Below are positions 24,549 to 61,700 of a stretch of 64,000 nucleotides of DNA, piece after piece. The translations under genes were made by a program, and so were the position numbers. How positions within the stretch are numbered: the first letter of the stretch is position 1; every line of letters starts with the position of its first letter. The stretch comes from Oscillospiraceae bacterium (GTDB lineage: Bacteria; Bacillota; Clostridia; Oscillospirales; Oscillospiraceae), in NCBI GenBank assembly GCA_015068035.1, contig SVLI01000007.1:31176-95175 (forward strand). Reading direction: 5' to 3'. A model generated the notes under the pieces. It did not search any database and had not been told where the DNA came from. It saw nothing but the letters and a program-made list of their open reading frames with translations.

Positions 24549-24580
24549 AGCTGTCTGACATCCGAAAACAAAAAGAAACG

Positions 24581-25125: not shown

Positions 25126-25187
25126 ATTAAGGCGATATGAATGTTATCGGTCCCAGCCCATAGGCACAAATTTATGGAGGATGTTTT

Positions 25188-27953: not shown

Positions 27954-27992
27954 GTGCAAGAAGCGCAATTCAAGTTTTACGGGGAGACATTG

Positions 27993-29420
27993 ATGAAAAT
28001 CTTTCAGAAAATAATCTCAAGCAACAGCTTGACGGGTTTTCCCGCGCTTGGTAAAAACAATACCAATGCATTGGATAAGCTTGTGGCTCTTGTGCTCGCA
28101 ACAGCACCTCTGCTACAGTACTATAAGGGGATCTCCGTTTTCCATGCCGGTTTTCTGGTTCTTATTGTTTGCATCCCCTATATCGGCATCCGGCTGCTGC
28201 TACGCATCCGGGAGCTGGAGTGGAAAAATCTTTGGTATGCGTTGCCCCTTGTATTGTTTCAAGTCTACCGTGTAGTTGCGCATGGAACAGATTTTATCGA
28301 GTTTATGCACGGTGTGGTGCTGAGCGCTTATTTCATTGCGATAGCGCTCGGTGGTATTAATCTGCGCTATGTAACACTGTCTGCCTGCGTTATCTCGCTT
28401 ATGGCGGGTTTTTTGGTCATAGTACAAACGATTTCGTACTTTGTGTTTCACACTCATCTCCAGCTAACTGCAACCGGCCTTCTGCTGGCGGAAAGTGAGC
28501 AGTGGGTTGCCCTTGCGCAGACAGGAATTATCGGCATTACCGGAAAGGCCGGTCTGCTCTATCGCCCATCCGCCTTTTTTCTTGAACCGTCTCACCTTCT
28601 GATGTACAGCATGCCGGTTCTCTTTGTTCTGCTGCTCACCCCACAGATGACGCGTATAAAACGCATCGGTGCGGTAATTATCTCCCTCGGACTGATACTG
28701 TCCACCTCAGGAATGGGTATCATGTTGGTGCTCGGTGTATGGATGCTACAGCTTGGCTTTTCGAACGGTAAGGAAAACCATTTGGCCTTTAAAAATCTAT
28801 TTTGTAAACAGAGCATCTTGCGTTGTTTTGCCTTTTTGATTGTATTCTGTATGATTTGCTTTATCCTGCCGTCCCTTCGCTATGCTGTCTTGCGAAGTGT
28901 TATCAGTGACAAGCAGCTTGCTGATATCATGCCAAAGACAAGTCAAACGTTGGCGGATTTTAGAACAAAGGCTTTTGATGAAATATCCACTTCTATGTCC
29001 CCCTCTACTTCTACTGAAATAGCAGGTCTTTCAGATAATACTGCTACACCAAGCACTTCAACGGCAATTTCCGGGCGCACCGAATGGCCCCTTATACGAC
29101 TAAAGCAAATGACTGCATCCGAGTTGTGCACCGGCGTAGGCGATACTTTGCCCGCGAATTATGACTTCCCCAAACCCGGCTTCTTTGCAACCATGTTTAA
29201 ATACGGAATCATCGGCACCGTGATATCCTACCTTTACTATTTGCTCTGCGCCTGCTATACAAAACACGCTTACAGATGGATTGCGATCATTACAATCCTT
29301 CTCTCGTTTGTTGATGCACAATCACACGGAACATTCTGTATGCTACATTATGTGCTGATCCTCATGGGCGGCTGCTATCTCCGTTCGAGAGACCGTGTAG
29401 GAAGTACGGAAAAAACATGA
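27993..29420 (+). CDS. Polytopic membrane protein, O-antigen polymerase/ligase (Wzy-like)
   Basis: At least 10 hydrophobic segments. The ATG at 27993 lies 6 nt after GGGGAG. The locus context is polysaccharide synthesis. A Ser/Thr-rich loop lies around 28980-29075. Confidence 0.65.
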   Translation: MKIFQKIISSNSLTGFPALGKNNTNALDKLVALVLATAPLLQYYKGISVFHAGFLVLIVCIPYIGIRLLLRIRELEWKNLWYALPLVLFQVYRVVAHGTDFIEFMHGVVLSAYFIAIALGGINLRYVTLSACVISLMAGFLVIVQTISYFVFHTHLQLTATGLLLAESEQWVALAQTGIIGITGKAGLLYRPSAFFLEPSHLLMYSMPVLFVLLLTPQMTRIKRIGAVIISLGLILSTSGMGIMLVLGVWMLQLGFSNGKENHLAFKNLFCKQSILRCFAFLIVFCMICFILPSLRYAVLRSVISDKQLADIMPKTSQTLADFRTKAFDEISTSMSPSTSTEIAGLSDNTATPSTSTAISGRTEWPLIRLKQMTASELCTGVGDTLPANYDFPKPGFFATMFKYGIIGTVISYLYYLLCACYTKHAYRWIAIITILLSFVDAQSHGTFCMLHYVLILMGGCYLRSRDRVGSTEKT

Positions 29421-29482
29421 CCATTACGGCGAGAGTTTTCCCTCTGTAATGCACAAAGTAATAATCAACTTAGGAGTTTCTC

Positions 29483-30640
29483 ATAAAAGCACTGATTCTG
29501 GCCGGCAGTCTGCCACAGATTGATCTTATCCAGCAGTTGGAGGACTGCGGCATATACACTATCTTGGTGGATGGGGCAAAAGAGCCTGTTGTTCTTCCCT
29601 ATGCGGATACCTTTTATCAGGTGGATATTTTCAATGTGGAAATGATAAAAGAAATCGCCCTCTCATAAAAGCCAGACTTCCTCACCACCGTCTGCGCTGG
29701 TCAGGTTCTGTGGGTAGCGGCTCAGGTTTATGAAATGCTCGGCCTCCCCTGCTACATTGACTACCATATGGTTCAGCTCGTTTCCGACAAGACTTACATC
29801 TTCCTAGAGGACGATATTCCCAGTTCCCGCTATGTTGAGTTCTGGGAACTCGAGTGGGAAAAGATCAATCCCCTCTGATATCCGCTGGTTGTCAAACTGG
29901 TGGACGCATGCAGTTCCAAGGATGTCCGCAAAGTCCGGAACAGGGAGAAGCCGAAAACCTATTTCCGGGAGGGCTTTGGGATCAGCCGTAGCGGCGGTGT
30001 CATTATCGAGGAATTCTGCGTTGGTGATAAGTTCAGCTTGGGCCGCTACGTGGAAGACTGTGAAGCGAAGCTTCTCCGCGTTTCCAACCGCGAAAAGCTT
30101 TGCGTGGATGACCGCTTTATCATTTTCCACGGACGTTTCCCCGCTAATGTCTCCCCGGCACTTACCGAAAGATCCACCACGTTGCTTAGCAGATTGCAGG
30201 TGCCTTTGGACTGAAGAACACGCCTATGCTTGTCCAGGTGATCATCGACAGCGAAAATGTATCGGTTCTGGAGTTCTGTACCCGTACCGGCGGCTGCATG
30301 AAGCATCTGCTGTTCCGTCGTTCCTGTGGCTTTGATGTGATTCGCACAGTTATTGACCGCACTCCGGGCCAGTTCCCCCATGTGGAGTTGAGGCATCCGG
30401 AGAGCGCCATCATTGTCAATGACATCATCTATTGCAACAATGGTGTGTTCTACCATCTAGACGACTTTGACGCGCTCATGGACGAAGAAGTTATTTCGGA
30501 CTATGCTGTCTGCAGCCCAAGGGCATGACCGTCAACGGCATTCACAGCTGCAGCAACCGCATTTCCAGCTTTACCATTCATGCCGACACGCCGGAGGGGT
30601 TCAATCGCAAACAGCGGATTACCGTTCACGCGCAAAGGCA
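29483..30640 (+). pseudogene. ATP-grasp enzyme of capsule/EPS loci, inactivated
   Basis: An AGGAG RBS is followed by ATA (29483) where ATG is expected (IKALILAGSLPQIDLI...). In-frame TAA at 29666 and TGA at 29876 interrupt it. Frameshifts follow after about 30210, with pieces in three frames. Confidence 0.8.
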
Positions 30641-31800
30641 AGCATCCTGTTTATCTCTGTCAGCAGAATCTGCTCCACCTGCACATTGCGTATCTGGTAG
30701 GATGTGCATTTTCCTTGCTACTTGCGGTAGAGGTGGTGCACGCGAAATGTTGCTGCTCGTATGTCCACCCGCTGACTCGGACTTGGTACAGTTTCGTACC
30801 GCAGTCAGCGCAGAACAGCATTCCCGACAAGACCGGCTTTCGCCCATCAGCGTGAGTCTGCGTCTGCCGTTGCGGATATTCTAGACAATTTCAAAGGTCT
30901 CTTGGTCAATAATGGCTTCGTGGGTGTTTTCAAAGATCACCCATTCAGACGGGCCATTGCTGACCTTTTTCTTTGATTTGCAGGATTTCTTCTGGGTCTT
31001 GAAATTTACCGTGTGACCCAGGTATTCCATCTTCACTAGAATATCTGCCACTGTGCGATGTTGACATGCGCAAATGTCCTCCATCTCTTAGGGATGTTGT
31101 TGATACCCACGCGGCGGAGATGCACTGCAGGAGCAGGTATCTGCTTCTACAACAGCTCCTTCGCAATATGCGAAGGCCCCTTTCCAGCTACACACATTTT
31201 GAAAATGTCCCTGACCACATTAGCTGCGACCTCATCCACGATCCAGTGATGCTTATCGTCTGGGTTTTTGAGTTAGCCAACGGGTGGGTTGGTGCACAGC
31301 GGTTTGCCAGATTCGCCCTTTGCCTTGAACCCCGCGCGAATCTTCTTACTGGTGTCTTTGGCGCACCATTCATTCGTTGATGATATTGAGGAACGGAGTA
31401 AAATAACTGTCCTGCTGATTGGCACCGTCCACGCCATTGTTGATGACGATAAAACAGACATCTACTCCGAGCGGCACCACCTCGGTGTAGTAACCTGTCT
31501 TGAGGTAATCTCTGCCTAGTCTGATCATGTCCTTTACGATGTCCGCGCGCCCTTGTCTACGTCCGCAAAGGCATAAGGCCCTGCAAGTCCGGGCGATCAG
31601 AGTTCATACCGCTTTAAGCACCATCTACAAAAACAAGGTATTTCCAACGCCGTTGTCATCGGCGTATTTCTGGAGGATAGCCTTTTGATTCAAAATGGAA
31701 TTGCTATCGCCCTACAGTTTATCGTCACGGGAGAGTCTGCAATACAGCGCCGTGATCTTATCCACCGCAATAGTGAAAGATGCCCAAAGAATACGATGAC
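30620..31800 (-). pseudogene. Large serine recombinase remnant (mobile-element integrase), multiply frameshifted and C-terminally truncated
   Basis: Minus-strand fragments include ITALYCRLSRDDKL*, IVKDMIRLGRDY, DTSKKIRAGFKAKGESGKPL, FENTHEAIIDQETFEIV, KPVLSGMLFCADCGTKLYQ and CTSYQIRNVQVEQILL. They are spread over all three frames with internal stops. Confidence 0.8.
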
Positions 31801-31920
31801 TGCGTCAATGAAAAGTACGGCTTTATCGAACTGGGGATATTCTCCTATGCTTTCCGTCTCGGCGGTAGACTTCTTATGCTTACCAAACTGATGGACAGCG
31901 GCGAAGATGTCTAAAACAGA

Positions 31921-31963
31921 AAAGACCGCACAGCAGGCTATATAGCCTGCTGTGTGGTCTTTT
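31921..31963. terminator. Bidirectional intrinsic terminator
   Basis: A 19-bp stem (aaagaccgcacagcaggct / agcctgctgtgtggtcttt, one G-U pair) carries the loop atat. T-runs are present on both strands. Confidence 0.8.
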
Positions 31964-32065
31964 CGTTGGCGCCATTCGATGACGTCACTCAAAAATTATC
32001 GATGTTTTTAATAATCCCTAAGTGAACGCTCCAAAATGAGCGCCTTTTTCCAGACAGATAAAGTC

Positions 32066-41783: not shown

Positions 41784-41875
41784 GGCATCCCGACGCGCAA
41801 AACAAGCAGGAATCGCCGGGCATCGAATCCGTCGACGGATTTGCTGATTTATTTCTCAATTTTTGAAAGTTTTTC

Positions 41876-41904
41876 TTGCAATCACAGAAATGCTGTGATA
41901 TAAT
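41876..41904 (+). promoter_or_regulatory. Sigma-A promoter (extended -10) for rplS
   Basis: TTGCAA, then 17 nt, then TATAAT preceded by TGA. A leader of about 95 nt follows. Confidence 0.7.
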
Positions 41905-42006
41905 GCCAACGCATTTTGCGGGCTGAGCCCGCATATCAAGGCGGTCCGCTGCCGGATTGTGCTGTGTGCCACGGTATGAACGTCTGTAGAAAAGGAAGGA
42001 TTTTTT

Positions 42007-42348
42007 ATGGATCTCATCAAAACCCTCACCGAGCAGTACATGAAGCCTGAGCTTCCCGCACTGAACGTCGGTGACACCGTTCGCGTTACCGTCCGCGTCA
42101 AGGAAGGCAGCCGCGAGCGCACCCAGGCCTTCGAGGGCATCATCATCGCCAAGAAGCATGGCGGCATCAACGAGACGATCACCGTGCGCCGCATCAGCTA
42201 CAATGTCGGCTGCGAAAAGGTGTTCCCCGTCCACTCCCCCACGATCGTTTCCGTGGATACCATCCGCCGCGGTAAGGTTCGCCGCGCGAAGCTGTATTAC
42301 CTGCGCGACCGCGTGGGCAAGAAGGCCAAGGTCAAAGAGCGTCTGTAA
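42007..42348 (+). CDS. rplS: 50S ribosomal protein L19
   Basis: [32 protein letters not shown] is present. Length is 113 aa. Confidence 0.97.
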
Positions 42349-42365
42349 GGCAATCGTGCCTAAGA

Positions 42366-42402
42366 GAAACAGGGTTTCCGGTTTTCGGAAGCCCTGTTTT
42401 TC
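42366..42402 (+). terminator. Intrinsic terminator
   Basis: The stem is gaaacagggtttccg / cggaagccctgtttt, followed by a T-run. Confidence 0.8.
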
Positions 42403-42430
42403 TATTCATTTCTCAATATGCACACAAAAA

Positions 42431-42459
42431 TTGACTTTTCCCGACTGCTGTGATAAATT
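42431..42459 (+). promoter_or_regulatory. Putative sigma-A promoter (extended -10)
   Basis: TTGACT, then 17 nt, then TAAATT preceded by TGA. Confidence 0.6.
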
Positions 42460-42562
42460 ATTTGATATGTTACCGTTTGTACTGGGACACGCTTTGGAAT
42501 CAGATGTCGAATGCGCTTCATGCGCTCTTACAGGATAAAGAATAAAAGGAGAGAGAGCACAG

Positions 42563-43747
42563 ATGGATATTTTCGAAAAATGCTTCAACTACAAGCAGGC
42601 AGATGAGCTGCGCGCGCAGGATCTGTTCCCCTATTTCCGCGAGCTGCAATCCCGTCAGGACGTGGAAGTCATCATGGAGGGCAAGCGCCGCATCATGCTC
42701 GGCTCCAACAACTATCTCGGTCTGACCACGAATCCGGAGATCATCGCCGCAGGCGTAAAAGCGCTTGACGAATACGGCACCGGCTGCTCCGGCTCCCGTC
42801 TGCTCAACGGAACGCTGGTTCTGCACCTGCAGTTTGAAAAGGAGCTTGCTGAATTCCTTGGCGTAGGCGACGTGGCAACCTTCCCCTCCGGCTTTCAGTC
42901 CAACCTTGGCATCATTTCCGCGCTTGTCGGCCGCAATGACTATGTGATTTGCGACAAGGAAAATCACGCAAGTATCTATGACGGCTGCAAGCTCTCTTAC
43001 GGCAAGATGCTCCGCTATCGCCACAGCGACATGGCGGATCTGGAAAAGCAGCTTCAGCGTGTTCCGGAAGAGGCCGGCTGCCTGATCGTGACGGACGGCG
43101 TGTTCTCCATGGCCGGCGACATTGCCAAGCTTCCCGAAATCGTGGCGCTTGCGAAGAAATATCACGCGCGTGTCATGGTCGACGATGCGCACGGCTTTGG
43201 TATCCTCGGCAAGGGCGGCCGCGGTACGGCCAGCCACTTTGGTCTGGAAAAGGATGTCGACGTCATCATGGGCACCTTCTCCAAGTCCCTCGCCTCGCTG
43301 GGCGGCTTCATGGCGGCGGACGCCAAGGTTGTGGACTATGTGCGCTGCAACTCCCGTCCCTACATCTTTGCCGCTTCGGTTCCGCCCGCAAGCATTGCCG
43401 TTGCAAACGCTTCCCTGCGCTATCTTGCCGCGCATCCCGAGCTTCCGGTCAACCTGCTGGCCAACGCGCAGTATATGCGTGAGAAGCTGCGCGCCAACAA
43501 CATTCAGATCATCGACGCGGAGACGCCCATCATCCCCATCTTTACATATGATCCGATCGTCACGCTGCAGGCGCAGAAGGAGCTCTACGATCGCGGTGTA
43601 TACGTCAACGCCACGCTGCCGCCCGCCTGCGCGCCCGGTGAGTGCCTGCTGCGCTGCACGCTGATGGCAACGCACACGAAGGAACTCATCGACGAGGCGA
43701 CGGAGATCATTGTCGATGTTCTCTCCCACTATGAGCTCAAAAAATAA
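42563..43747 (+). CDS. PLP-dependent alpha-oxoamine synthase, serine-palmitoyltransferase-like
   Basis: The PLP-Lys motif is GTFSKSLASLGGF (SPT-type, versus GTLGKA in KBL/BioF). PYFRELQS, GSNNYLGL, NHASIYDG, DGVFSMAGD and the C-terminal PPACAPGECLLRCTLMATHT are also present. Confidence 0.8.
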   Translation: MDIFEKCFNYKQADELRAQDLFPYFRELQSRQDVEVIMEGKRRIMLGSNNYLGLTTNPEIIAAGVKALDEYGTGCSGSRLLNGTLVLHLQFEKELAEFLGVGDVATFPSGFQSNLGIISALVGRNDYVICDKENHASIYDGCKLSYGKMLRYRHSDMADLEKQLQRVPEEAGCLIVTDGVFSMAGDIAKLPEIVALAKKYHARVMVDDAHGFGILGKGGRGTASHFGLEKDVDVIMGTFSKSLASLGGFMAADAKVVDYVRCNSRPYIFAASVPPASIAVANASLRYLAAHPELPVNLLANAQYMREKLRANNIQIIDAETPIIPIFTYDPIVTLQAQKELYDRGVYVNATLPPACAPGECLLRCTLMATHTKELIDEATEIIVDVLSHYELKK

Positions 43748-44531
43748 GCCCGTTGTCGTCATCACCGGCGGCAGCAGCGGCATTGGGAAGGCAGCAGCGG
43801 CGCTCTTTGCCGGGCGCGGCTGCCGCACCTATGAACTCAGCCGCAGCGGCATCGATGCGGAGAATATCCGCCACATCACAGCGGATATGACGGATGAGCA
43901 GAGCGTTTCCGACGCTGTTGACCGGATTCTGTCCGAGTGCGGGAGGATTGATATTTTCGTCTGCAACGCCGGATGGGGCATCTCCGGCGCGGTGGAATTC
44001 ACGGAGACGGAGGCCGCGCAGCGGCTGTTTGACGTCAACTTTTTCGGCGTCCTGCGCTGCATCCGCAAAGTTGTGCCTGTTATGCGCACACAGAAAAGCG
44101 GACGCATCGTCTGCCTGAGCAGCGTGGCAGCGCCCCTTGCCATCCCCTATCAGGCCTTCTATTCCGCAAGCAAGGCAGCAATCAACGATCTTGTGCTCGC
44201 GCTGCGATGCGAGCTGCGGCAGTTCGGCGTAAAGGTGAGCGCCGTGATGCCGGGCGACGCGCAAACCGGCTTCACCGCAAACCGGGAAAAGGCATCTGAG
44301 GGTGATGCGCTTTACGGCGGCGCGATTGAGCGCGCCGTCTCCGCCATGGAAAAGGACGAGCGCGGCGGCATGCCGCCCGAAACCGTTGCTAAGAAGATTT
44401 ATCTTGCGGCAACGAGAAAACACCCGCGTCCTTTCTATGTTGCGGGCGCCAAATACCGCCTGTTTGTGATGATCGCCAAGTTCCTGCCGACCTCCCTCGT
44501 CAACTGGATCATCGGCAAGATGTACGGCTGA
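43731..44531 (+). CDS. Classical short-chain dehydrogenase/reductase
   Basis: VVVITGGSSGIGKA, NAGWG and YSASK (YxxxK) are present. The ATG at 43731 overlaps the preceding gene by 17 nt. Confidence 0.85.
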   Translation: MSSKNKPVVVITGGSSGIGKAAAALFAGRGCRTYELSRSGIDAENIRHITADMTDEQSVSDAVDRILSECGRIDIFVCNAGWGISGAVEFTETEAAQRLFDVNFFGVLRCIRKVVPVMRTQKSGRIVCLSSVAAPLAIPYQAFYSASKAAINDLVLALRCELRQFGVKVSAVMPGDAQTGFTANREKASEGDALYGGAIERAVSAMEKDERGGMPPETVAKKIYLAATRKHPRPFYVAGAKYRLFVMIAKFLPTSLVNWIIGKMYG

Positions 44532-44550
44532 AAATTATATGCTGCATACA

Positions 44551-44584
44551 AAAAAGCTTCGGGCATTGAGCCCGAAGCTTTTTC
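44551..44584. terminator. Bidirectional intrinsic terminator
   Basis: The stem is aaaaagcttcgggc / gcccgaagcttttt, with A and T runs on both sides. Confidence 0.85.
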
Positions 44585-44607
44585 TGCTGATTCAAGTCAA
44601 ATCCGTC

Positions 44608-45909
44608 TCATGATCCGGAATATTCACTGTAGACTTCCGAAAGCGCAACGCCGTTTTCCTTTGCAAGTGCTGCAGCGCTGTCAAATTCCGCTTTCTCCCG
44701 GGAAACACCCCAGCCCTCGGCACGTTTGGTGCGGAGCGTGCCGAATTTCGTCTCCACGCTGCCCGCCGACGGCGTGAGGAAATATTTGCCGCAGCGGCGC
44801 ACACGCAGGCCGATGGTGCTGGTGTTCTCAAAAATCGCGCGTGCAAGCGCCTCCTCGTCCTCCGGCGCACAAAGCACCGTCAACACATGCCCCGGTCTTC
44901 CCTTTTTCATCGTTCCGGGCTGGAGGTACACATCCAGCGCGCCGCGCTCCAGCAGCACAGTCTGCGCGAAAGCAAGCGACTCGGGCGTCATGTCGTCCAG
45001 ATTACAGACGAGCTCTGTAATCTCGCCGCGCTGCCCACCGCGCTGCTCGCCGAGCGTTGCGCGCAGGCAGTTCGCTTCCGCAAACTCCCGTTTGCCGAGC
45101 CCTGTTCCGATCTGCTGCGGAATCATGTCGGGCTGCGCACCGAATTCCTGCACGAGTTCCGCAAGCAAAGCAGCGCCTGTCGGCGTGCAAAGCTCGCCCT
45201 GAATCTCGCCGCCGTAGCAAGGCAGACCCAGCAGCAACTGCGCCGTTGCGGGCGCAGGAACGGGCAGAAGCCCGTGTGCACACCGAACCTGTCCCGTACC
45301 GAGCCGGATCGGCGAGCAGACGATCTTCTCCACGCCGAGCATTTCCGTCAGCAGGCAGACCCCGACGACATCCGCGAGCGCATCCAGCGAGCCAAGCTCG
45401 TGAAAATGAATGTGTCCAATCTCCGTCCCATGCACCTTGGCCTCTGCCTCCGCAATGCGGTGATAGACCTTTTTGGCCCGCGCGAGAACTGCCTCCGGCA
45501 GCGCAAGCGTATCAAGCAGACGGAAAATCTCCTCCGGCGACATGCCGTGGTGGTGATGGTGATCGTGATGATCGTGGTGCTCATGATGCCCATGATGGTC
45601 ATGGTCGTGGTCATGTCCATGATCGTGATCATGGTGGCTGTGATGGTCATGGTCTTCGTGGTGCTCATGGTGGCCGTGACCGGTTTGCACAGGATGGTCT
45701 TCCTCCTCCGCGCCGTGAAAACGCAGCTTCATGCGCGTTCCCGCAATGCTGCGGGAAGTGCCTTTTTCCGCCTCGACAGTCAGCCCCGGAATGCCGGCGC
45801 CGTGCATGGCGTCCAGAAAAGCGCTGCCATCCGGCAGCAGCTCATAAAGCGCGGCCATCAGCATATCGCCGGCAGCACCCATGCCGCAGTCCAAATAAAT
45901 CAGTTTCAT
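44608..45909 (-). CDS. larC: Nickel-pincer cofactor biosynthesis protein LarC (nickel insertion)
   Basis: MKLIYLDCGMGAAGDM is at the N-terminus. An internal tract of about 45 aa is His/Asp-rich. It is a single uninterrupted ORF. Confidence 0.88.
   Translation of the reverse strand: MKLIYLDCGMGAAGDMLMAALYELLPDGSAFLDAMHGAGIPGLTVEAEKGTSRSIAGTRMKLRFHGAEEEDHPVQTGHGHHEHHEDHDHHSHHDHDHGHDHDHDHHGHHEHHDHHDHHHHHGMSPEEIFRLLDTLALPEAVLARAKKVYHRIAEAEAKVHGTEIGHIHFHELGSLDALADVVGVCLLTEMLGVEKIVCSPIRLGTGQVRCAHGLLPVPAPATAQLLLGLPCYGGEIQGELCTPTGAALLAELVQEFGAQPDMIPQQIGTGLGKREFAEANCLRATLGEQRGGQRGEITELVCNLDDMTPESLAFAQTVLLERGALDVYLQPGTMKKGRPGHVLTVLCAPEDEEALARAIFENTSTIGLRVRRCGKYFLTPSAGSVETKFGTLRTKRAEGWGVSREKAEFDSAAALAKENGVALSEVYSEYSGS
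45544..45680 (-). repeat. Low-complexity His/Asp codon tract inside larC
   Basis: The plus strand is a run of gtg/atg/gtc triplets. It encodes HGHHEHHEDHDHHSHHDHDHGHDHDHDHHGHHEHHDHHDHHHHHG. Confidence 0.9.
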
Positions 45910-46682
45910 TCCTCTGCCCCCTGTTCGTCCGCCGGACTTTCCATCCGGTTGATGCGGTTTGCAAGGAATCCGGCGCCGAAGCCGTTATCAATGTTGACAA
46001 CGCAGCTTCCCGAAGCGCAGGAGTTGAGCATCGCCAAAAGCGCTGCAACGCCGCCGAAGCTCGCCCCGTAGCCGATACTCGTCGGCACCGCGATCAGCGG
46101 GCAATCCGTCAGCCCCCCCACGACGGAGGCCAGCGCGCCCTCCATGCCCGCAACGGCAATGATCACGCGCGCGTTCATCAGCTTATCCGTATTGGCCAGC
46201 AGCCTGTGGATGCCGGAAACGCCGACATCGTAAAGCCGCGTCACCCGGCTGCCGAGGGTCTCCGCCGTGATGGCGGCCTCCTCCGCAACGGGTATATCAC
46301 TCGTTCCGCCGGTTGCGATCACAACATTGCCAACGCCTTTGACCGGCTTCGGATACGCCACGCCGATTTTGGCATCGGCATGATAGCAAAGCTCAACCTG
46401 GGAGGCAACGCTTGCCGCCGCATCCGCGCTCAGGCGTGTGATGAGAATATTGTCGTTTCCGGCCTCATGCAGAACGCGGACGATGCCCACGATCTGTTCC
46501 GGCGTTTTCCCCGCGCCGTAGATAACCTCCGCCCGGCCCTGTCGCAGACTGCGGTGGAGATCCACCTTGGCGTAGCCAAGCTCCTCAAACGGCTCCATGC
46601 GCAGGGAGAGCAGCGCATCCTCCGGCGTGACCGAGCCGGAGGCAACCTCCTGCAGCAGACGCAAGGTCTGTTCATTGTGCAT
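45906..46682 (-). CDS. larB: Nickel-pincer cofactor biosynthesis protein LarB (PurE-like carboxylase/hydrolase)
   Basis: ORF 45906..46862. The ATG at 46682 lies 8 nt after GGAGGAC and 5 nt after the upstream stop. GYAKVDLHR..RQGRAEVIYGAGKTPEQI and AVAGMEGALASVVGG are present. Confidence 0.88.
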   Translation of the reverse strand: MHNEQTLRLLQEVASGSVTPEDALLSLRMEPFEELGYAKVDLHRSLRQGRAEVIYGAGKTPEQIVGIVRVLHEAGNDNILITRLSADAAASVASQVELCYHADAKIGVAYPKPVKGVGNVVIATGGTSDIPVAEEAAITAETLGSRVTRLYDVGVSGIHRLLANTDKLMNARVIIAVAGMEGALASVVGGLTDCPLIAVPTSIGYGASFGGVAALLAMLNSCASGSCVVNIDNGFGAGFLANRINRMESPADEQGAEE

Positions 46683-46687
46683 AAAAC

Positions 46688-47581
46688 TCAGTCCTCCTGT
46701 CTCTCCATTGTCGCCACGATGCGGGAAAAGCTTTCCGATATGTACCCAAAGCTGTTGCGCTGGTGCGGAAGCAGGCATTTGCTGCAGTCCTTGAGTCCGG
46801 AATCCGTCTTGGAGAAGTTCCCGCCGCATTTGTCGCCGAGCACGTAGAGCGGGCAGTAGCAAAACATGCAGTTAAAATTGTCCGGGTCATCCGTCTTGTG
46901 GCAGGGGAAAAATTCACATTCCTTGTGGCTGAAGAAAGAATAGTGCTTTGTCTTCCAATCCTCCTGACTGGACGCAGCCACGCTGCGCAGCGCGCGCACG
47001 GCGGGCAGGCGGGTATAAGACGCGGGGCGCAGGCCCTCATAACTGATCGCATAGCCACAGCCGGGAGACGGCTGCCAGGAATAACGGTTCTTGCCCTCGC
47101 CGGGGAAGAGATGCGCCATGATCGCCGCGATCACGCCGCCGTGCGTGACAACAATCGCGTTTCCGGCCGCGCCGGCAAGCGCCGTAAAGGCCGCGATCGC
47201 GCGCTTTTTCAGCTCCACGCCGCTCTCTCCGTTCGGGCAGACATTCGCCTCGTTATCGCCGCTCAGCCACGCAGAAAATGCAGCGTCATCCTTGAGTTCC
47301 TCATAGGAATGCATCTCAAAATCGCCGAAATTCATCTCTCTGAGCGCCGGCAGCTTTTCATGCGGTTGTTTGCCCCAGATCAGCTTAAGCGTCTGCTCTG
47401 CGCAGAGCATCCCGCTGGTATAAATGCGGCAGTTTTCCGCGGATGGATAGCTGAATTCCTCCGCCGCCTTGCGCAGCTCGGCAGCGCCGGATTTTGTCAG
47501 CGGCAGATCCGTCGCGCCGCAGTAAAGCCTGTGCTTGTCCGCGCGCGTCCAGCCATGCCGGATCAGATAGATTTTCTTCAT
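46688..47581 (-). CDS. Fusion: histidine-phosphatase (CobC/alpha-ribazole-phosphatase-like) domain plus C-terminal cysteine-rich small domain
   Basis: The N-terminal part has IYLIRHGWT...THGGVI. The C-terminal part is HKECEFFPCHKTDDPDNFNCMFCYCPLYVLGDKCGGNF...CSKCLLPH. The start at 47581 lies downstream of a mapped promoter. Confidence 0.8.
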   Translation of the reverse strand: MKKIYLIRHGWTRADKHRLYCGATDLPLTKSGAAELRKAAEEFSYPSAENCRIYTSGMLCAEQTLKLIWGKQPHEKLPALREMNFGDFEMHSYEELKDDAAFSAWLSGDNEANVCPNGESGVELKKRAIAAFTALAGAAGNAIVVTHGGVIAAIMAHLFPGEGKNRYSWQPSPGCGYAISYEGLRPASYTRLPAVRALRSVAASSQEDWKTKHYSFFSHKECEFFPCHKTDDPDNFNCMFCYCPLYVLGDKCGGNFSKTDSGLKDCSKCLLPHQRNSFGYISESFSRIVATMERQED

Positions 47582-47629
47582 GAAACACCCTCGCCTCCCG
47601 GTATTAGGAGCATACTTTTCTAACTGTAT

Positions 47630-47659
47630 ATTGTAACATTTCCTTATACGTTTTGTCAA
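47630..47659 (-). promoter_or_regulatory. Putative sigma-A promoter of the phosphatase-larB-larC operon
   Basis: On the minus strand the sequence reads TTGACA, then 18 nt, then TACAAT. Confidence 0.6.
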
Positions 47660-47774: not shown

Positions 47775-48290
47775 ATGCGAACAGCAAACGTGATCGTCCT
47801 GCCTTACGACAGCGCATGGGCAGGCGCATTCGGGAAAATCAAAAAAGAGCTTGAAAGCGCGATCGGTGATTTGATTGTCGGGATCGAGCACGTCGGCAGC
47901 ACTGCGGTTGAAGGACTTTCTGCTAAACCGTGCATCGATATTGATGTAGTAATGAAAGATTATTCGGTATTTGAGACTATTGTCTCAAGATTGGAAACGA
48001 TTGGATATTTACATGAAGGCGACCTCGGAATCAAGGACAGAGAGGCATTTAAGTATTGGCACAAACCTCATTTGCAGACGCACCATTTGTATGTATGCCC
48101 ACAATATTCTGAGGAATTGCGCCGCCATATTACATTTCGGAATTTTTTGCGGAATAACCGCGAAGCGATCCGAAAATACAGTCTGGTGAAGGAAAAAGCG
48201 GCAAAGCTTTTCCCAAACGATATAGAGAAATACATGGAATACAAATCAGCTTGCATCGAAGAATTCTATGCGCAGTGCGGTTTGATGTGA
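47775..48290 (+). CDS. GrpB-family protein
   Basis: VLPYDSAWAGAFGKIKKEL...IEHVGSTAVEGLSAKPCIDIDVV is present. The ATG at 47775 follows GGTGG. Confidence 0.8.
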   Translation: MRTANVIVLPYDSAWAGAFGKIKKELESAIGDLIVGIEHVGSTAVEGLSAKPCIDIDVVMKDYSVFETIVSRLETIGYLHEGDLGIKDREAFKYWHKPHLQTHHLYVCPQYSEELRRHITFRNFLRNNREAIRKYSLVKEKAAKLFPNDIEKYMEYKSACIEEFYAQCGLM

Positions 48291-48326
48291 TTTGGCAAAT
48301 CCGAATTTGACAAAGGAGGTTTTCCG

Positions 48327-48569
48327 GTGATTCATCTTCTCAACAGAAAGGCCCTGATCACAACGCTTTCCGACCGGGAACTGTTTCGCATTCAATCTGC
48401 GTTAACCGATGCCAAAATCCCGCATTTCGCAAAGCCCGGCGCACCCGCTTTTTCCGCCGGTCGCTACCGCGCATCCCCTTTTCTCAAACACGATGCCGTC
48501 CCCACGGTAATCTACGTAAAAGCCACCGACTATGACCTCGCCAAAGCGGCCATTCAAGCGGTTTTGTAA
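48327..48569 (+). CDS. Hypothetical small protein
   Basis: 80 aa with a GTG start after AAAGGAGG. I recognise no family. Confidence 0.5.
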   Translation: MIHLLNRKALITTLSDRELFRIQSALTDAKIPHFAKPGAPAFSAGRYRASPFLKHDAVPTVIYVKATDYDLAKAAIQAVL

Positions 48570-48711
48570 GGTAAGGGCGCTTGCCGAACACGGCGCGCAG
48601 CCATATCTTCCCGCAGAACGCCTGCTCCGTTCCCTGTCCGGAGTTGGGAAGACAGAAAGAATGCGCCGAACAGACCCGCAGCATACAAACGCATATGCCT
48701 TGGGGAAACAA

Positions 48712-48743
48712 AAACGGGAGCGGACTTACGTCCGCTCCCGTTT
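48712..48743 (-). terminator. Intrinsic terminator
   Basis: A 14-bp stem (aaacgggagcggac / gtccgctcccgttt) is followed on the minus strand by tttttgttt. Confidence 0.85.
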
Positions 48744-48745
48744 CC

Positions 48746-48952
48746 TTATCCGTTATACTGGATTATTGCTGCGACAATTACAAAAACCACAATTGCAATG
48801 GCTGCGATGATCATAACCGCGCCTTTGGCTTGTTTTTTTGCGTACTCATCCTGCTGTTTGCTTGGTTGTTTACCCGCAACTGCGCAGCCGCACTTGGGGC
48901 ATATGACCGCCTCATCCAGCAATTGATTGCCACACTTTTCACAGTATTTCAT
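48746..48952 (-). CDS. Zinc-ribbon plus single-TM small protein
   Basis: MKYCEKCGNQLLDEAVICPKCGCAV is followed by a C-terminal hydrophobic helix. Confidence 0.75.
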   Translation of the reverse strand: MKYCEKCGNQLLDEAVICPKCGCAVAGKQPSKQQDEYAKKQAKGAVMIIAAIAIVVFVIVAAIIQYNG

Positions 48953-48964
48953 ATCGACTTCTCC

Positions 48965-49249
48965 TTAGATTGACAGCGCCACTATAAGAACCAGATTGAT
49001 AACAAAACCGACCAATGCAAATATACCAATTTGCTTTGCCTTGCGTGGTGTTCTCCCCTGCATCGTGCAAAACATAATCAAACCGGCCAAAGGAATAAAA
49101 AATGACAGGATATTCAAACCGCCGTTTGGCACATCATCGCCGGCGATGGCACCTTTTATACTATTGGCGCCATTGACTGCGCAACCGCAATTCATGCAAA
49201 CGACAGCTTCGTCCATCAGTTCCTTTCCGCAATGCGTGCAATATTTCAT
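48965..49249 (-). CDS. Zinc-ribbon plus two-TM small protein (paralogue of the neighbour)
   Basis: MKYCTHCGKELMDEAVVCMNCGCAV is followed by two hydrophobic helices. Confidence 0.75.
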   Translation of the reverse strand: MKYCTHCGKELMDEAVVCMNCGCAVNGANSIKGAIAGDDVPNGGLNILSFFIPLAGLIMFCTMQGRTPRKAKQIGIFALVGFVINLVLIVALSI

Positions 49250-49269
49250 ACAATCGCTCCAAACACAGG

Positions 49270-49605
49270 TCAGTCCATATCAACGTCAACGGAAGCCTTT
49301 TCGGTTTCGGGATTGTAAGTTCCCGTTCCCGTAAACTTTCCGTTCACGGTTTCGCTAAACTCATTTTTTGCAGAGTATGTGCCGTAGAACTCGAACTCGT
49401 TTTCACCGACTTCTTCAATGGACGTGATTTGAACGCTCGGCAATCCCTTGCATCCGCTTGCAGTAAGCGTGAATTGGACATCCCATTCGGCTGCATCAAC
49501 AACTGCCTCTTTGGGTGTCATTTTGTCAGGGGTGTCCTTGCCACCGCAGGCGCAAAGGGACAAGCACAGCACGAGGGTCAAAATCAGAGAAACTGCTTTT
49601 TTCAT
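49270..49605 (-). CDS. Small lipoprotein
   Basis: MKKAVSLILTLVLCLSLCACGG carries a lipobox (L-C-A-C). The ATG at 49605 follows AGGAAG. Confidence 0.75.
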   Translation of the reverse strand: MKKAVSLILTLVLCLSLCACGGKDTPDKMTPKEAVVDAAEWDVQFTLTASGCKGLPSVQITSIEEVGENEFEFYGTYSAKNEFSETVNGKFTGTGTYNPETEKASVDVDMD

Positions 49606-49844
49606 TGTTGCTTCCTTCTTTCTCACTCATCAATATAAAGCATCACCGCATTCATGCCGACGGAATTTGCATTTTTAACAAATTCCGGGCACAAACGCAA
49701 AAGGGTATGCTCCCCCTGCGACGATGCTTCATCTTTATTCGATTGGTTTGATATCCTGATTCTACCACGACTGTCACGCGAATTCAATATCGCACAGAAC
49801 GAAAACATCTGTTCTCGTTTTCATCCACCCACCACAATGCAGAA

Positions 49845-49879
49845 AACCCTGTGCAGCATTCTGCGCGCTGCACAGGGTT
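49845..49879 (-). terminator. Intrinsic terminator of the SLH-esterase gene
   Basis: A 13-bp stem (aaccctgtgcagc / gctgcacagggtt) is followed on the minus strand by ttttct. Confidence 0.8.
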
Positions 49880-49953
49880 CATCTTTTACATTCCGTTAAG
49901 AACTCCGCTGTAACTCAGCGGCAGGGCCTATGACTCTAACGCCAAAAGGCGGC

Positions 49954-51444
49954 TTACACAACGTGCGTTTTCAGATAATTCTTGATCATGGCGTACTGCG
50001 GAGCAAGAATGTGGAGGCCGTCCGCCAAAGCGTGATCTTCGGGCAGATAACCGTCCTCACCGACAAGTATGCTGAACACATCAAGCAGATAGACCTTCTC
50101 GCTCGCCGAAATTGCGGCAAGCCGCTCATTGTAGGCACGGATGTTTTGCAGATTGAAGATCTCGCTATCCTCGCTGCACTTTTCCGTAACGGGCGGAATG
50201 TTGATCAGATAGATCTGCGCGCCCGGCTGCGTCTCCCGCACGAGGGCAATGAGCTGCTTCATATAGGACGCAAAACTGTTGATATGCTCCGGCTTCGGGC
50301 CAAGGTCATTTGTGCCGAGCATGATGTAGACCTTGTTGTAGCTGGCTTCCCGCTCCTGCAAAATATCCTCAATGTTTCCGCGCACGGGAACCTCTTCCCC
50401 GTCCTCGTCCGTGGTCATCTCTTCAAGGTCGAAGTAGTCAAATTTGAACAGGCCCGCGGCAGAGGCTCCGTTGACCGCAAGGAAATCCGCATTCGGCAGG
50501 TTGAAGTAATTCGACATGCCGACAACCATAGAATGGCCAATGAAGCAGCTACCCGCAAACCAACCGTCGGAAACCGCGCTGCTCTCCGGAATCGGAACGC
50601 CGTACTGCACGCCGACATTGGGAAGCGCACTCTGTCCGACTGTGTTGATAAACCGCATCAGCAGCATAGCAACCTGCGCACGCGTGGCCTGGCCCTGCGG
50701 CGCAAAGTGCGTTGCATCCATGCCGGTGATGATGCCCGCATCGCGCATCGTATACACTGCGGTCTTCGCCCAGCCGCTGATTTCGGCATCGTCTGCAAAT
50801 TTGCCCGCGTTCTGGATGCGCTGCAACGGCACGTCAAAACGCTTTGCAAAGTTATAAAAGATGGCGCAGAGCTGCTCGCGGGTGATGGACATATCCGGCG
50901 CGAAGATACCGTTTCCCATGCCGCTGACGATACCTTCCCGCGCTGCCCACTCAATATAGGGCGTGTAGTACATAGCCCGCGGAACGTCCGAAAATGTCCC
51001 GTTCGTTTTCGTCATCAGGTCGTTGCGGACATAACCGGTCAGGCCGTTTGCACGGATTCTGTACCAGTTGTTTTCCGTTCCTAAAATCTCCACGCTCGTG
51101 CCGCTGTTAAGCACGGCAAGAATTTGCGAGTTCGTGTTCGATTCCGCGCGGAAATTCACGCCGTTCTTGGTGATCATGCCGCTGTCTGTAAGCGCATTCG
51201 AGACGTTGGAAATGCGCCCAAGCACCGTCACCACCATCCCGCGCGTCATGGTGATATCGGGGCCGAATTCCGTTTCCGTCACGCCCACGTAATAGCCGCG
51301 CTGGGTCACGAACGCAACCGCTTCGCTAAACCACATGCCGTCCGGCACATCCGTAAAGCGTCCCGCAGCATACGCAGCAGGCACGAGGGCAAGCAGCATC
51401 GTGACGGCCAAAAGAAGCCCCAAAAATTTTTTCAAGCACCGCAC
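49954..51444 (-). CDS. Secreted cell-wall-anchored SGNH/GDSL esterase with SLH and SH3b domains
   Basis: The signal peptide is ...LVPAAYA|AG. SLH-type segments are FTDVPDGMWFSEAV and FSDVPRAMYYTPYIEWA. An SH3b-like segment is VNFRAESNTNSQILAVLNSGTSVEILG..NWYRI. The C-terminal part has FIGHSMV...GTND...DGLH. Confidence 0.8.
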   Translation of the reverse strand: MRCLKKFLGLLLAVTMLLALVPAAYAAGRFTDVPDGMWFSEAVAFVTQRGYYVGVTETEFGPDITMTRGMVVTVLGRISNVSNALTDSGMITKNGVNFRAESNTNSQILAVLNSGTSVEILGTENNWYRIRANGLTGYVRNDLMTKTNGTFSDVPRAMYYTPYIEWAAREGIVSGMGNGIFAPDMSITREQLCAIFYNFAKRFDVPLQRIQNAGKFADDAEISGWAKTAVYTMRDAGIITGMDATHFAPQGQATRAQVAMLLMRFINTVGQSALPNVGVQYGVPIPESSAVSDGWFAGSCFIGHSMVVGMSNYFNLPNADFLAVNGASAAGLFKFDYFDLEEMTTDEDGEEVPVRGNIEDILQEREASYNKVYIMLGTNDLGPKPEHINSFASYMKQLIALVRETQPGAQIYLINIPPVTEKCSEDSEIFNLQNIRAYNERLAAISASEKVYLLDVFSILVGEDGYLPEDHALADGLHILAPQYAMIKNYLKTHVV

Positions 51445-58739: not shown

Positions 58740-61700
58740 ATGGATAAAATCACTCCATTTTTAGATATTTTTTCCTGCTGCGGAGCACTTTCGGCCTCCT
58801 GCGGCGGGCTGGAAAAGGCAACAGTGCATCAGGTGACCGTCAATCGGGAGCGGATGTCCATGGTTGCGGATGTTGTGTTTGCCCAGACACCGCTTGCCTC
58901 CGAGCGGACGGCGCTTGAAAATTGCATCGCGGCGGAATATGGGCTGCGCAGCGTTGCGCTGCTCTCCCCCACCCCCGCACAGACGAGCGCTGCGCCCGCA
59001 GCCAAAGAAAAGAAGCCGGCCAAAAGTGCCGACAAAAAGTCCAGCGGCAGCGTGCTGCTTGGCAAGAGCTTCCGGGAACAGGGCCTCACGCCGATCGGCG
59101 AACTGACGCGCGAGAGCGGAAACGTCACCGTCCGGGGCGAGGTTTTTGCCGTGGACAGCCGGGAGATCAAGCGGACGGGCGGCGCGGTGCTCAGCTTCTG
59201 CATCACGGATTACACCGGCTCTGTGCACGTGAGCAAATACATCCGTCCGGGAGATGACAACGGCATCATCAAGCTCGTCAAGGACGGGATGTATCTGGCC
59301 ATCAAGGGCAACATGAACTACAACCGCTATGATGAGGACATCGCGCTTGAGCCCTCCGCCATTCAGGAGTCGGCGCGGCCGCAGCGGGAGGATAACCACC
59401 CCGGCGAAAAGCGCGTGGAGCTGCATCTGCACACCCGTTTTTCCTCTTTGGACGCACTGAGCGACCCCGCCGCCGCCATCAAGACCGCAGCGCGCTGGGG
59501 ACACGAGGCCATTGCCTTCACCGATCACGGCGTTGCGCAGGCTTTTCCGGACGCCTGGCTCGCTGCGAAAAAGGCCGGCATCAAGGTCATCTACGGTCTG
59601 GAAGGCTACTATGTCAATGATGTGGACGACAAGCTCGCCGTCCACGGCGAGGATGCGCGTGCGCTGACCGACGAATTTGTTGCCTTCGATCTGGAGACAA
59701 CGGGACTCGACCAGAGAAAAGACCGCATCATCGAAATCGGCGCGGTGATCTTCCGCAAAGGCGAGTCGGTTGCAAGCTTCAACAGCTTTGTCGACCCCGA
59801 GCGGGCGCTGCCCTCCAACATCACGGAGCTCACGGGAATCACGCCGCGTGATCTGTTCGATGCGCCCAGCGAAAAGGATGCGCTGAAGGCCTTTCTGGAC
59901 TTCGTCGGTGACCGCCCGCTGGTTGCGCACAATGCAGACTTTGACGTCGGCTTTCTCATGAATGCCTGTGCGCGGCAGGGCTATGCCTACGACCCGGTCT
60001 ATGTTGACACGCTCCTGCTTTCGCAGACGCTTTTGCCCGACCTGCGGCGACACAACCTCAATGTTGTGGCCGGACGGCTCGGCCTGCCGGATTTCCGCCA
60101 CCACCGCGCAAGCGACGATGCCTATGTCTGCGCCCGCCTGTGCGAGCGTTTCTTCACCATGCTTGCGGAAAAGGGCGCTTCGTGCTTTAACGACATCCAG
60201 CCCATGATCGCAAACCTGCGCGTGGGCGACAGAAGCCGACGCACGCGGCACATCATCCTGCTCGCGCAGAACAAGACCGGCCTGAAAAACCTTTATGAGC
60301 TGATTTCCCGCTCCCATCTGGAGCATTTCCGCCGCAACCCCATCATCCCGAAAAGTCTGCTCAGTCAATACCGCGAGGGTCTGATCATCGGCTCCGCCTG
60401 CGAAGCGGGCGAGGTGTTTGCCGCGATTCTCGGCCGCCGCAGCGCAGCGGAGCAGCGCCGACTTGCCTCGTTTTACGATTATCTGGAAATCCAGCCGCGC
60501 TGCAACAACGCCTTTCTGCTCGCAGATGGCAAAGTTCCGGACGAGGAGGCGCTGCTTGATCTCAACCGCCGCGTTGTGGAACTGGCCGCCGAGCTTGGAA
60601 AACCTGTCGTCGCAACGGGCGACGTGCATTTCCTCGAGCCGGAGCATGAGGTCTATCGCCGCATCCTGCTCGCATCGAAAAAGATGAGCGACTGCGACCG
60701 GCCTCTGCCGCTCTACTTCAAAACTACAACGGAGATGCTCGAGGAGTTTGCCTATCTCGGCGAGGAGAAAGCGCATGAGGTCGTCATTGACGCGCCGCGC
60801 GCCATTGCCGAGCGCATTGAGAAGTTTGACATTCTGCCCGACGGACTGTTCACGCCGAAAATTGAAAACTCCGCTGAGGATCTGCAGGCGCTCTGCTATG
60901 AGAAAATGCACGCGCTCTACGGAGACAATCCGCCGGAGATCGTGTCTTCCCGTATGGAGACGGAGCTGCGCGACATTCTCGGGCGCAAATACGACGTCAT
61001 CTATATGTCCGCGCAAAAGCTCGTTGCCGATTCTCTTGCGCACGGCTATCTGGTCGGTTCGCGAGGCAGCGTCGGCTCGTCGCTGGTTGCCTATCTCTCC
61101 GGCATTACGGAGGTCAACTCACTCCCGGCGCACTATCGCTGCCCAAGCTGCCGCTATTCGGACTTTGAAAGCGGCAAGGACTTTGGCTGCGGCGCGGATA
61201 TGCCGGACAAGCTCTGCCCCGTTTGTGGCACGCCGCTGGATAAGGACGGTTTTGACATCCCGTTTGAAACCTTCCTCGGCTTCGGCGGTGACAAGGTGCC
61301 GGATATTGACCTGAACTTCTCCGGCGAATATCAGGCAAACGCCCACAAATACACGGAAACGCTGTTCGGGCGCGACCATGTGTTCCGCGCCGGCACGATC
61401 GGAACGCTCGCGGAAAAGACCGCCTACGGCTATGTGAAGAAATATCTGGAGGAGCGGGGCCTCACCGTCACAAAGGCGGAGGAAAACCGGCTGGCAGCCG
61501 GCTGCGTCGGCGTCAAGCGCACGACGGGACAGCACCCCGGCGGCCTTGTCATCATCCCGCAGGACATGGACGTGACGGATTTCTGCCCTGTCCAGCACCC
61601 CGCGGACGACAAAGACAGCGACATCATCACAACGCATTTCGACTATCACAAGATGGAGGATAATCTCCTTAAGCTGGACGAGCTCGGCCACGATGACCCG

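Follow-up and report, generated by a model that had tools for sequence, protein, structure and literature searches.

Can a monoderm Clostridial bacterium make sphingoid long-chain bases? The question is raised by a two-gene locus at positions 42431-44584 of a 64,000-nucleotide stretch of an Oscillospiraceae genome (contig SVLI01000007.1 of assembly GCA_015068035.1), the whole of which we call the window. Open reading frame (ORF) calls and translation give two co-directional genes at this locus, one for an alpha-oxoamine synthase (AOS) resembling serine palmitoyltransferase (SPT), followed by one for a short-chain dehydrogenase/reductase (SDR). An earlier note on this DNA had read them as an SPT-like AOS and a 3-ketosphinganine-type SDR in a Firmicute, and this reading is upheld here by family and structure scores, active-site residues, a phylogenetic tree, the conserved linkage of the two genes and the finding that KdsR is the best-matching curated family of the linked SDRs in 12 of 12 cases. 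We consider it likely that the pair forms a two-gene operon for the production of a sphingoid long-chain base from serine in this monoderm Oscillospiraceae bacterium.

According to a 2023 review, bacterial sphingolipids have been detected for the most part only in Bacteroidota and in certain alphaproteobacteria (PMC10191378). A survey of the Black Sea found Spt-like genes in many phyla, and the text that we searched carries no mention of Firmicutes. Our literature search turned up no paper in which either an SPT or a 3-ketosphinganine reductase is reported from Clostridia. Neither enzyme considered here is of a new kind; the novelty lies in the group of bacteria that carries them and in the arrangement of their genes as an overlapping operon.

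Evidence for an SPT-type synthase

The AOS matches the domain Aminotran_1_2 over residues 44-383 (E = 1.6e-54), and its best match among NCBIfam models is NF047600, the Bacteroidota SPT family, at 505 bits against an equivalog cut-off of 640 bits. The betaproteobacterial SPT model NF047599 scores 400 bits (cut-off 500), the alphaproteobacterial SPT model NF047603 scores 345 bits (cut-off 670), and the two nearest models outside the SPT group, KBL and BioF (TIGR00858, cut-off 426), score 376 and 375 bits. The SPT of Bacteroides thetaiotaomicron, run as a positive control, reaches 702 bits with NF047600, which passes the cut-off, and 383 bits with the nearest non-SPT model, so that its families rank as they do for the AOS. 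Comparison with solved structures in the PDB gives the same picture, with 408 bits for Sphingobacterium SPT (3a2b/8guh) and 308-314 bits for Sphingomonas SPT, against 255 bits for KBL, 239 bits for cysteate acyltransferase and about 207 bits or less for BioF. Over its full length the AOS is 50% identical to the B. thetaiotaomicron SPT.

The active site points the same way. The motifs PYFRELQS (residues 23-30), DVEVIMEGK (33-41), NHASIYDG (134-141), DGVFSMAGD (178-186), GTFSKSLASLGGF (237-249, with Lys241) and PPACAPGECLLRCTLMATHT (353-372) are all present, and every motif quoted in the earlier note was found in the AOS and SDR translations. Lys241, the pyridoxal 5'-phosphate (PLP) lysine in GTFSKS, aligns to Lys244 of Sphingobacterium SPT and Lys265 of Sphingomonas SPT, while AOS residues His135, Asp207, His210 and Asn49 correspond to His138, Asp210, His213 and Asn52 of the Sphingobacterium enzyme. 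We compared 19 active-site positions, namely the residues of Sphingobacterium SPT reported to bind PLP and L-serine (PMC10196870) together with adjacent positions, and 18 of these are identical or conservatively substituted in the AOS. In Sphingobacterium numbering, which we use from here on, identity extends to Asn52, Gly80-Ser81, His138, Asp210, His213, Thr241, Ser243 and Ala274, and the C-terminal Arg (Arg390 of Sphingomonas SPT) is also kept. Three of these sites separate SPT from its relatives: Gly80-Ser81 is Ser-Val in KBL, Ser243 is Gly in E. coli KBL and BioF, and Ala274 is Asn in KBL, Thr in BioF and Lys in the cysteate acyltransferase SulA (its Lys281; PMC9304779). The earlier note had set the SPT-type lysine motif apart from a GTLGKA shared by KBL, BioF and ALAS; the distinction is confirmed at the Ser243 position in E. 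coli BioF and KBL, and at that position only. The SPT-type active-site residues are invariant or nearly so in the 120 closest homologue clusters of the AOS.

One substitution departs from this pattern. Phe83, which lines the acyl-chain pocket of Sphingobacterium SPT (PMC10196870), is replaced by Leu in the AOS (its residue 80; window 42800-42810) and in 118 of the 120 closest clusters, while other Bacillota and Bacteroidota relatives have Phe or Tyr at this position. The change appears to be specific to the lineage, and because it falls in the wall of the acyl pocket, the preference for chain length may differ from that of the characterised enzyme.

The tree is a distance-based, neighbour-joining one of 85 sequences with 100 bootstraps, and its references are three SPTs of solved structure, the B. 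thetaiotaomicron SPT, E. coli KBL and E. coli BioF. An SPT clade holding the AOS and the Bacteroidota and Sphingomonas SPTs is supported at 95%, with KBL and BioF outside it and E. coli BioF on the outgroup side. Within that clade the AOS groups purely with sequences of Bacillota and Acholeplasmataceae (61%), and the Bacteroidota SPTs form the sister group of these sequences (80%). The earlier note had named BioF and KBL as the families into which a tree might place the enzyme; it falls inside the SPT clade, apart from E. coli BioF, E. coli KBL and 19 KBL-like sequences from other genomes. Cysteate acyltransferase was compared through bit scores and the residue at its Lys281 position, and the placement among SPTs holds with respect to KBL and BioF. 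The best family, the best structure, the active-site residues and the 95% clade together support an SPT-type AOS, as the earlier note had proposed.

The reductase and its linkage to the synthase

The SDR shows the features expected of a classical member of its family: an adh_short domain (E = 2.8e-44), TGGSSGIG at residues 12-19 (within TGGSSGIGKA, 12-21), NAG at 79-81, YSASK at 144-148, a catalytic triad of Ser131, Tyr144 and Lys148, and a hydrophobic C-terminal helix. By the cofactor rules for SDRs, an Arg two residues past the second beta-strand (in YELSRSG) suggests NADPH. The best NCBIfam model is NF049977, the Bacteroides KdsR, at 227.7 bits over profile positions 2-267 of 267, a score that lies below the family cut-off of 400 bits and about 1 bit above that of the generic PRK06179 (226.6 bits). 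The comparison with KdsR was made through this profile. Solved structures include no close relative of the SDR, the best reaching 91 bits. The sequence taken by itself is weak evidence for a KdsR-type reductase, and linkage to the AOS is the stronger argument, since the SDR scores under the cut-off, is tied with PRK06179 and has no close structure. Among linked orthologues the family signal is clearer: KdsR is the top family in all ten Bacillota orthologues scanned individually (205-290 bits, leading by 6-35 bits), and it is the best curated family in all 12 linked SDRs tested, which comprise the window SDR, these ten and the SDR of a Bacteroidales-binned contig described below (L088).

The linkage itself is conserved over considerable distances. 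The SDR adjoins the AOS in 22 of the 28 Bacillota loci recovered with the AOS. In lineages whose AOS is 63-71% identical to ours it lies directly downstream, usually overlapping or abutting, and where that identity is 53-57% the SDR gene is found just 5' of the AOS gene and points away from it, in a divergent arrangement. Across these groups the SDR is the only conserved neighbour of the AOS, and the other flanks change. A search from the SDR side agrees, with 3 of 3 homologues that we looked up (56-58% identity) lying directly after an AOS; one of the three is the SDR of L088.

The family is abundant: the homologue search gave at least 8000 candidates, and the best 120 clusters are 76-100% identical to the AOS, every named source among them being Oscillospiraceae, Oscillibacter or Clostridia. 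Carriers include Oscillospiraceae, Lachnospiraceae, Anaerovoracaceae, Clostridiaceae-like lineages and Acholeplasmataceae (locus L012). Sphingolipids were reportedly found in Acholeplasma axanthum by Plackett, Smith and Mayberry in about 1970, which would fit this last occurrence. Public annotation of the AOS and SDR homologues consists of generic names only, and some AOS homologues are labelled "8-amino-7-oxononanoate synthase".

Two further contexts bear on how the pair may have spread. In L088 and L089 it stands in an operon with a HAD hydrolase and a PlsC-type acyltransferase, on a contig binned as Paludibacteraceae whose neighbouring genes (lipid A deacylase, EptA-like, TonB-receptor-type, sulfatase) give a Gram-negative context. 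The AOS there is 62-66% identical to Clostridial proteins and 52% identical to the B. thetaiotaomicron SPT, and its SDR shows 58% identity. Because both genes are of Clostridial rather than Bacteroides type, this suggests that the pair has moved between phyla as a module, by horizontal transfer into a Bacteroidales lineage. In three Chloroflexota loci the SPT-like gene has an SDR of a different subfamily directly upstream on the same strand. The best NCBIfam match of these SDRs is PRK06181, and they carry a PPDTDT motif, as in eukaryotic KDSR/FVT1. It would seem that an SPT and a ketoreductase have been paired repeatedly, with reductases that are not orthologous to one another, and the Chloroflexota pairing may have arisen independently.

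Gene layout, host and transcription signals

The stop codon of the AOS gene (TAA, 43745-43747) lies past the SDR start codon at 43731, which gives the 17-nt overlap that the earlier note had recorded. An alternative in-frame ATG at 43716, with GGAG 11 nt upstream, would give a 271-aa product and a 32-nt overlap; this is the start chosen by public gene callers, while the N-termini of SDR homologues agree with 43731. With either choice the SDR reading frame opens before that of the AOS has closed, so that the two genes are probably translationally coupled and their products made together.

That the genome is Clostridial, as the earlier note held, is borne out by a PolC-type DNA polymerase III at window 58740-62750 (1622 bits, cut-off 873) and by a 99%-identical locus (L001) deposited as part of an Oscillospiraceae metagenome-assembled genome (MAG) from sheep rectum. 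Further Bacillota-type features of the window are FakA/DegV genes, an SLH-domain protein and a uppS-cdsA-dxr-rseP-ispG block. The GC content at third codon positions is 0.74-0.75 in the AOS and SDR genes and 0.68-0.83 in neighbouring genes; since the values are in line, the pair is native and not a recent insertion.

A terminator-like hairpin separates the unit from rplS, the gene before it, and a promoter candidate follows just past that hairpin, about 100 nt 5' of the AOS start (Table 1). The earlier note had credited the pair with its own promoter-like element. Such an element is indeed present and is kept in L001 and L081, and it is plausible by its position rather than by statistics, with 2 such sites per 3 kb against 1.1 expected. 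An Rfam scan of 41800-44700, AOS leader included, gave no significant family.

Behind the SDR lies a hairpin that this gene shares with larC (44608-45909, - strand), which runs towards it. The folding energy of the hairpin is -25.2 kcal/mol for the + strand (z = -4.45) and -29.1 kcal/mol for the - strand (z = -4.50), values that none of 200 shuffled sequences reached for either strand. Because it folds on both strands between two convergent genes, the earlier description of it as a bidirectional terminator is reasonable and stands. A consensus terminator scan had no entry for this hairpin, and our guess is that the flanking A and T runs were counted as stem.

Table 1. Positions of the AOS-SDR pair, its signals and other features of the window and of homologous loci (L numbers; positions within those loci)
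Feature	Position	Strand	Remarks
SPT-like AOS	42563..43747	+	394 aa, PLP-dependent; AGGAGAG ribosome-binding site upstream
Classical SDR, putative 3-ketodihydrosphingosine reductase	43731..44531	+	266 aa from ATG 43731
Terminator-like hairpin after rplS (42007-42348)	42363..42403	+	19-pair stem, 8 G-C pairs, T-rich tail
Sigma-70-like promoter candidate	42431..42459	+	TTGACT-17-TAAATT, TG before -10, 9/12 matches
Hairpin, reasonably a bidirectional intrinsic terminator	44551..44586	both	A6-GCTTCGGGC-ATTGA-GCCCGAAGC-T5, A-run before, T-run after
Lipid-related cluster	1-20900		Adenylation-carrier fusion (2-1522, cut by window start), DegV, MFS_2 transporter, YloV/FakA-like protein, alpha/beta hydrolases, patatin-like phospholipase, two PlsC-type acyltransferases with faint Aas-like matches, acyl-CoA/ACP ligase, LRAT-PPTase fusion, two ABC exporters
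LRAT/NlpC-P60-like (aa 7-118) and 4'-phosphopantetheinyl transferase (PPTase; aa 230-290) fusion	10703-11749		Unusual; adjoins carrier-protein genes
Glycyl-radical enzyme and radical-SAM activase	21104-24548		PFL-like, 809 aa
LarC then LarB	44608-46862	-	LarC with long His/Asp-rich insert (~45 residues)
Histidine-phosphatase/zinc-finger-like fusion	46688-47659		After LarC-LarB
HAD hydrolase, PlsC-type acyltransferase, AOS, SDR operon	L088 3517-6786; L089 3268-6786		
MarR-family regulator directly 5' of pair	L087 4210-4674; L090 4379-4816; L009 about 1696-2061		
SDR upstream of Chloroflexota SPT-like gene	L051 7090-7926; L054 7292-7996; L060 6425-7255	same as SPT-like gene	
DUF6938 protein beside SDR	L013 3391-4704; equivalents L014, L017-L021, L023, L061		436 aa, GT28-like N-terminus

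A proposed route to sphingoid bases

The structure of the genes, the families in which they fall, the conservation of the active site and the conserved linkage are observed, and they suggest the following scheme. The AOS-SDR unit would probably be transcribed from its own promoter-like element, with the transcript ending at the hairpin shared with larC; alternatively, the transcript may come from read-through from rplS past the upstream hairpin. The AOS would act as a soluble PLP enzyme, forming the external aldimine of L-serine on the PLP bound by Lys241, and would condense serine with a long-chain acyl thioester (acyl-ACP, where ACP is acyl carrier protein, or acyl-CoA), with loss of CO2, to give 3-ketodihydrosphingosine (3-ketosphinganine). 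The SDR, probably dependent on NADPH, would then use Ser131, Tyr144 and Lys148 to reduce the C3 ketone, which would yield dihydrosphingosine (sphinganine). If N-acylation to ceramide and the addition of a head group take place, then these steps would be encoded elsewhere. The choice of serine, the nature of the acyl donor, the use of NADPH, whether reduction or acylation comes first and which lipid is finally made are all predictions drawn from sequence, and that the SDR reduces 3-ketosphinganine we infer solely from its operon linkage.

Weighing the alternatives

Several points weigh against the proposed route. Both enzymes score under the curated cut-offs for their families, and for this reason neither can be classed as an equivalog of its Bacteroidota counterpart; for the SDR the lead over a generic family is also very narrow. 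The wall of the acyl pocket has lost its Phe. The tree is distance-based, with modest support for the Bacillota clade, and covers SPT, KBL and BioF, while cysteate acyltransferase, ALAS and CqsA are absent from it. Neither a ceramide synthase, nor a head-group enzyme, nor a dedicated ACP was found near the pair, and no cultured carrier appears among the named matches or cluster members, all those found being uncultured MAGs. Finally, the sequence holds no determinant that would fix serine over alanine or glycine, both of which characterised SPTs also accept (PMC10196870; PMC10191378).

In the alternative that we take most seriously, the pair would carry out the same chemistry on another amino acid (alanine, glycine, threonine or another) or towards another end product, giving a 1-deoxy-sphingoid or other amino-alcohol lipid. 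Such a lipid might not be a ceramide precursor at all but might function as the free base, in signalling or as an antimicrobial. The substrate range of SPTs would allow this, and the lack of ceramide genes beside the pair, the lineage-specific Leu in the acyl pocket and the sub-threshold scores of both enzymes are all compatible with it. A MarR-family regulator, absent from the window, precedes the pair in several Clostridial lineages, an arrangement that we regard as more typical of conditional or specialised metabolism than of the synthesis of bulk membrane lipid. However, the residues of the network that holds the serine carboxylate and hydroxyl (Asn52, Gly80, Ser81, His138, Ser243 and Lys244) are all identical in the AOS, and no sequence feature indicates a different amino acid. 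We therefore regard this alternative as unlikely, and serine as the better candidate substrate. The earlier note had also entertained a capnoid product, in which case the AOS would be a cysteate acyltransferase and the SDR a 3-ketocapnine reductase of a sulfonolipid pathway. Cysteate acyltransferases do fall, like SPT, in the SPT arm of AOS enzymes (PMC9304779), and an AOS followed by an SDR likewise yields capnine (PMC11211663). In SulA, however, Lys281 is essential for activity and has been proposed by Radka et al. as the residue that discriminates cysteate acyltransferase from SPT, which has Ala (PMC9304779), and this position is Ala in the AOS and in 120 of the 120 closest homologue clusters. 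A sulfonolipid role is unlikely because of this residue, and with the much lower structural score for cysteate acyltransferase than for SPT we consider it very improbable. No cysteate synthase is apparent in the annotated parts of the window, a few ORFs, for example at about 30-32 kb, being unscanned.

The pair might also be an accident of position, if the AOS were a housekeeping BioF for biotin synthesis or a KBL for threonine catabolism beside an unrelated SDR. The window holds no second AOS that could fill such a role, and the public labels mentioned above name some homologues as the biotin enzyme. Yet the tree separates the AOS from E. coli BioF and KBL and from the KBL-like sequences of other genomes, the KBL and BioF signature residues are missing at positions 80/81, 243 and 274, and neither bioB nor tdh occurs in the 64-kb window. 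A chance neighbour is also hard to reconcile with a KdsR-like SDR that is kept as the sole conserved partner in two gene orders across Bacillota, and we hold this explanation to be very improbable. The sphingoid-base route from serine remains the reading that we prefer for the pair.

Ceramide genes and the upstream lipid cluster

If the pair supplies a sphingoid base, then genes for an acyl donor or for later steps might be sought around it. In four different genomic contexts, the 6-10 kb around the pair were found to contain neither a PP-binding nor an AMP-binding gene. The earlier note had thought conceivable a functional link to an ACP/adenylase operon some 30 kb upstream in the window; the adenylation-carrier, ligase and PPTase genes in question lie at window 1-11.7 kb, 31-42 kb upstream of the pair. 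We found no gene of this cluster recurring near the pair in other genomes and no ACP or acyl-ACP synthetase beside it, which leaves the proposed link unsupported, though not disproved. The cluster itself looks like one for the scavenging and re-acylation of fatty acids or lysolipids.

The PlsC/HAD operon of L088 offers a candidate third pathway gene. The PlsC acyltransferase that stands beside the pair there has a match only at chance level in the window (E = 0.087), which gives the link to the upstream cluster no support either. In one group of Bacillota the pair is flanked by a DUF6938/GT28-like protein on the SDR side, FabI on the AOS side, an HD protein and others, and the DUF6938 protein of L013 has a faint match to diglucosyl-diacylglycerol synthase. 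We rejected the DUF6938, FabI and HD neighbours as third pathway genes, since the genomes concerned are 85-98% identical in their AOS, so that the synteny is not independent, and these genes are absent from the window.

Other features of the window

The convergent larC is followed by larB, both for synthesis of the nickel-pincer cofactor, and no LarA or LarE was seen near them. A glycyl-radical enzyme with its radical-SAM activase lies beyond the lipid cluster. Two stretches have a lower GC content than the rest of the window (0.47-0.50 against 0.55-0.60): 24000-32000, which holds an asparagine-synthase-like gene, a Bac_transf sugar transferase and two ORFs without family matches, and 48000-50000, which holds small zinc-ribbon proteins. 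These stretches may be acquired islands.

Implications for gut sphingolipids

Sphingolipids derived from Bacteroidota pass into the tissues of the host, whose immunity and lipid metabolism they modulate. Were the pair active, estimates of gut sphingolipid capacity from metagenomes that count Bacteroidota alone would be incomplete, studies that associate the microbiome with host sphingolipids could be confounded by the abundance of Oscillospiraceae, and a place for sphingolipid chemistry would have to be found in the monoderm envelope. We lean, by a modest degree, towards the broader view that a self-contained module of SPT and KdsR is present in many uncultured Clostridia of gut and rumen, which use it to make sphingoid bases, and possibly sphingolipids, de novo. 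If this view is correct, then Bacteroidota would be joined by monoderm Bacillota as a second and so far overlooked group of microbes that supply sphingoid lipids in the gut. The claim that gut Clostridia make sphingoid bases is directly testable with the published two-gene E. coli assay.

Comparison with known systems

The pair shares with SulA/CFAT (cysteate acyltransferase) and its 3-ketocapnine reductase an AOS of the SPT arm, the same catalytic cycle and a following ketoreduction by an SDR (PMC9304779, PMC11211663), and differs from that system in the Ala at the Lys281 position and in scoring 239 bits with cysteate acyltransferase against 408 bits with SPT. The ceramide pathway of the Caulobacter type comprises Spt, a dedicated ACP, an acyl-ACP synthetase, bCerS and CerR, according to those passages of PMC10191378 and PMC9386255 that recount Stankeviciute et al. 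2022. It likewise begins with an SPT-family condensation and includes a keto-reduction step, whereas the pair here has neither an adjacent ACP or acyl-ACP synthetase nor a nearby bCerS candidate, and the alphaproteobacterial SPT model gives the AOS 345 bits. The reductase differs as well, being here a classical SDR, while CerR belongs to an epimerase/NDUFA9-like family.

The closest known systems are those of Bacteroidota. KdsR of B. thetaiotaomicron (BT_0972; NF049977), for which the NADPH-dependent conversion of 3-ketosphinganine to sphinganine was demonstrated by Lee et al. 2022 (PMC9278070), is like the SDR here a classical SDR of about 265 aa with TGxxxGxG and YxxxK motifs, and the SDR matches the KdsR profile from end to end. 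The differences are the score of 228 bits against the 400-bit cut-off, the tie with PRK06179 and the operonic position of the SDR with an SPT-type gene. The Bacteroidota SPT (BT_0870 type; Sphingobacterium multivorum SPT 3a2b/8guh; NF047600) and the AOS are both soluble fold-type I PLP enzymes of about 394 aa that form sister clades, with 50% identity over their full length and identical PLP- and serine-binding residues and GTFSKSLASLGGF. The AOS here stands apart in its score of 505 bits, under the cut-off of 640, in the replacement of Phe83 by Leu and in its monoderm Bacillota host. The gene arrangement also differs: by its locus tag the B. thetaiotaomicron reductase BT_0972 is distant from the SPT (PMC9278070), and the Bacteroides loci that we examined have no such SDR within 8 kb of the SPT gene, whereas in the Oscillospiraceae locus the SDR overlaps the AOS.

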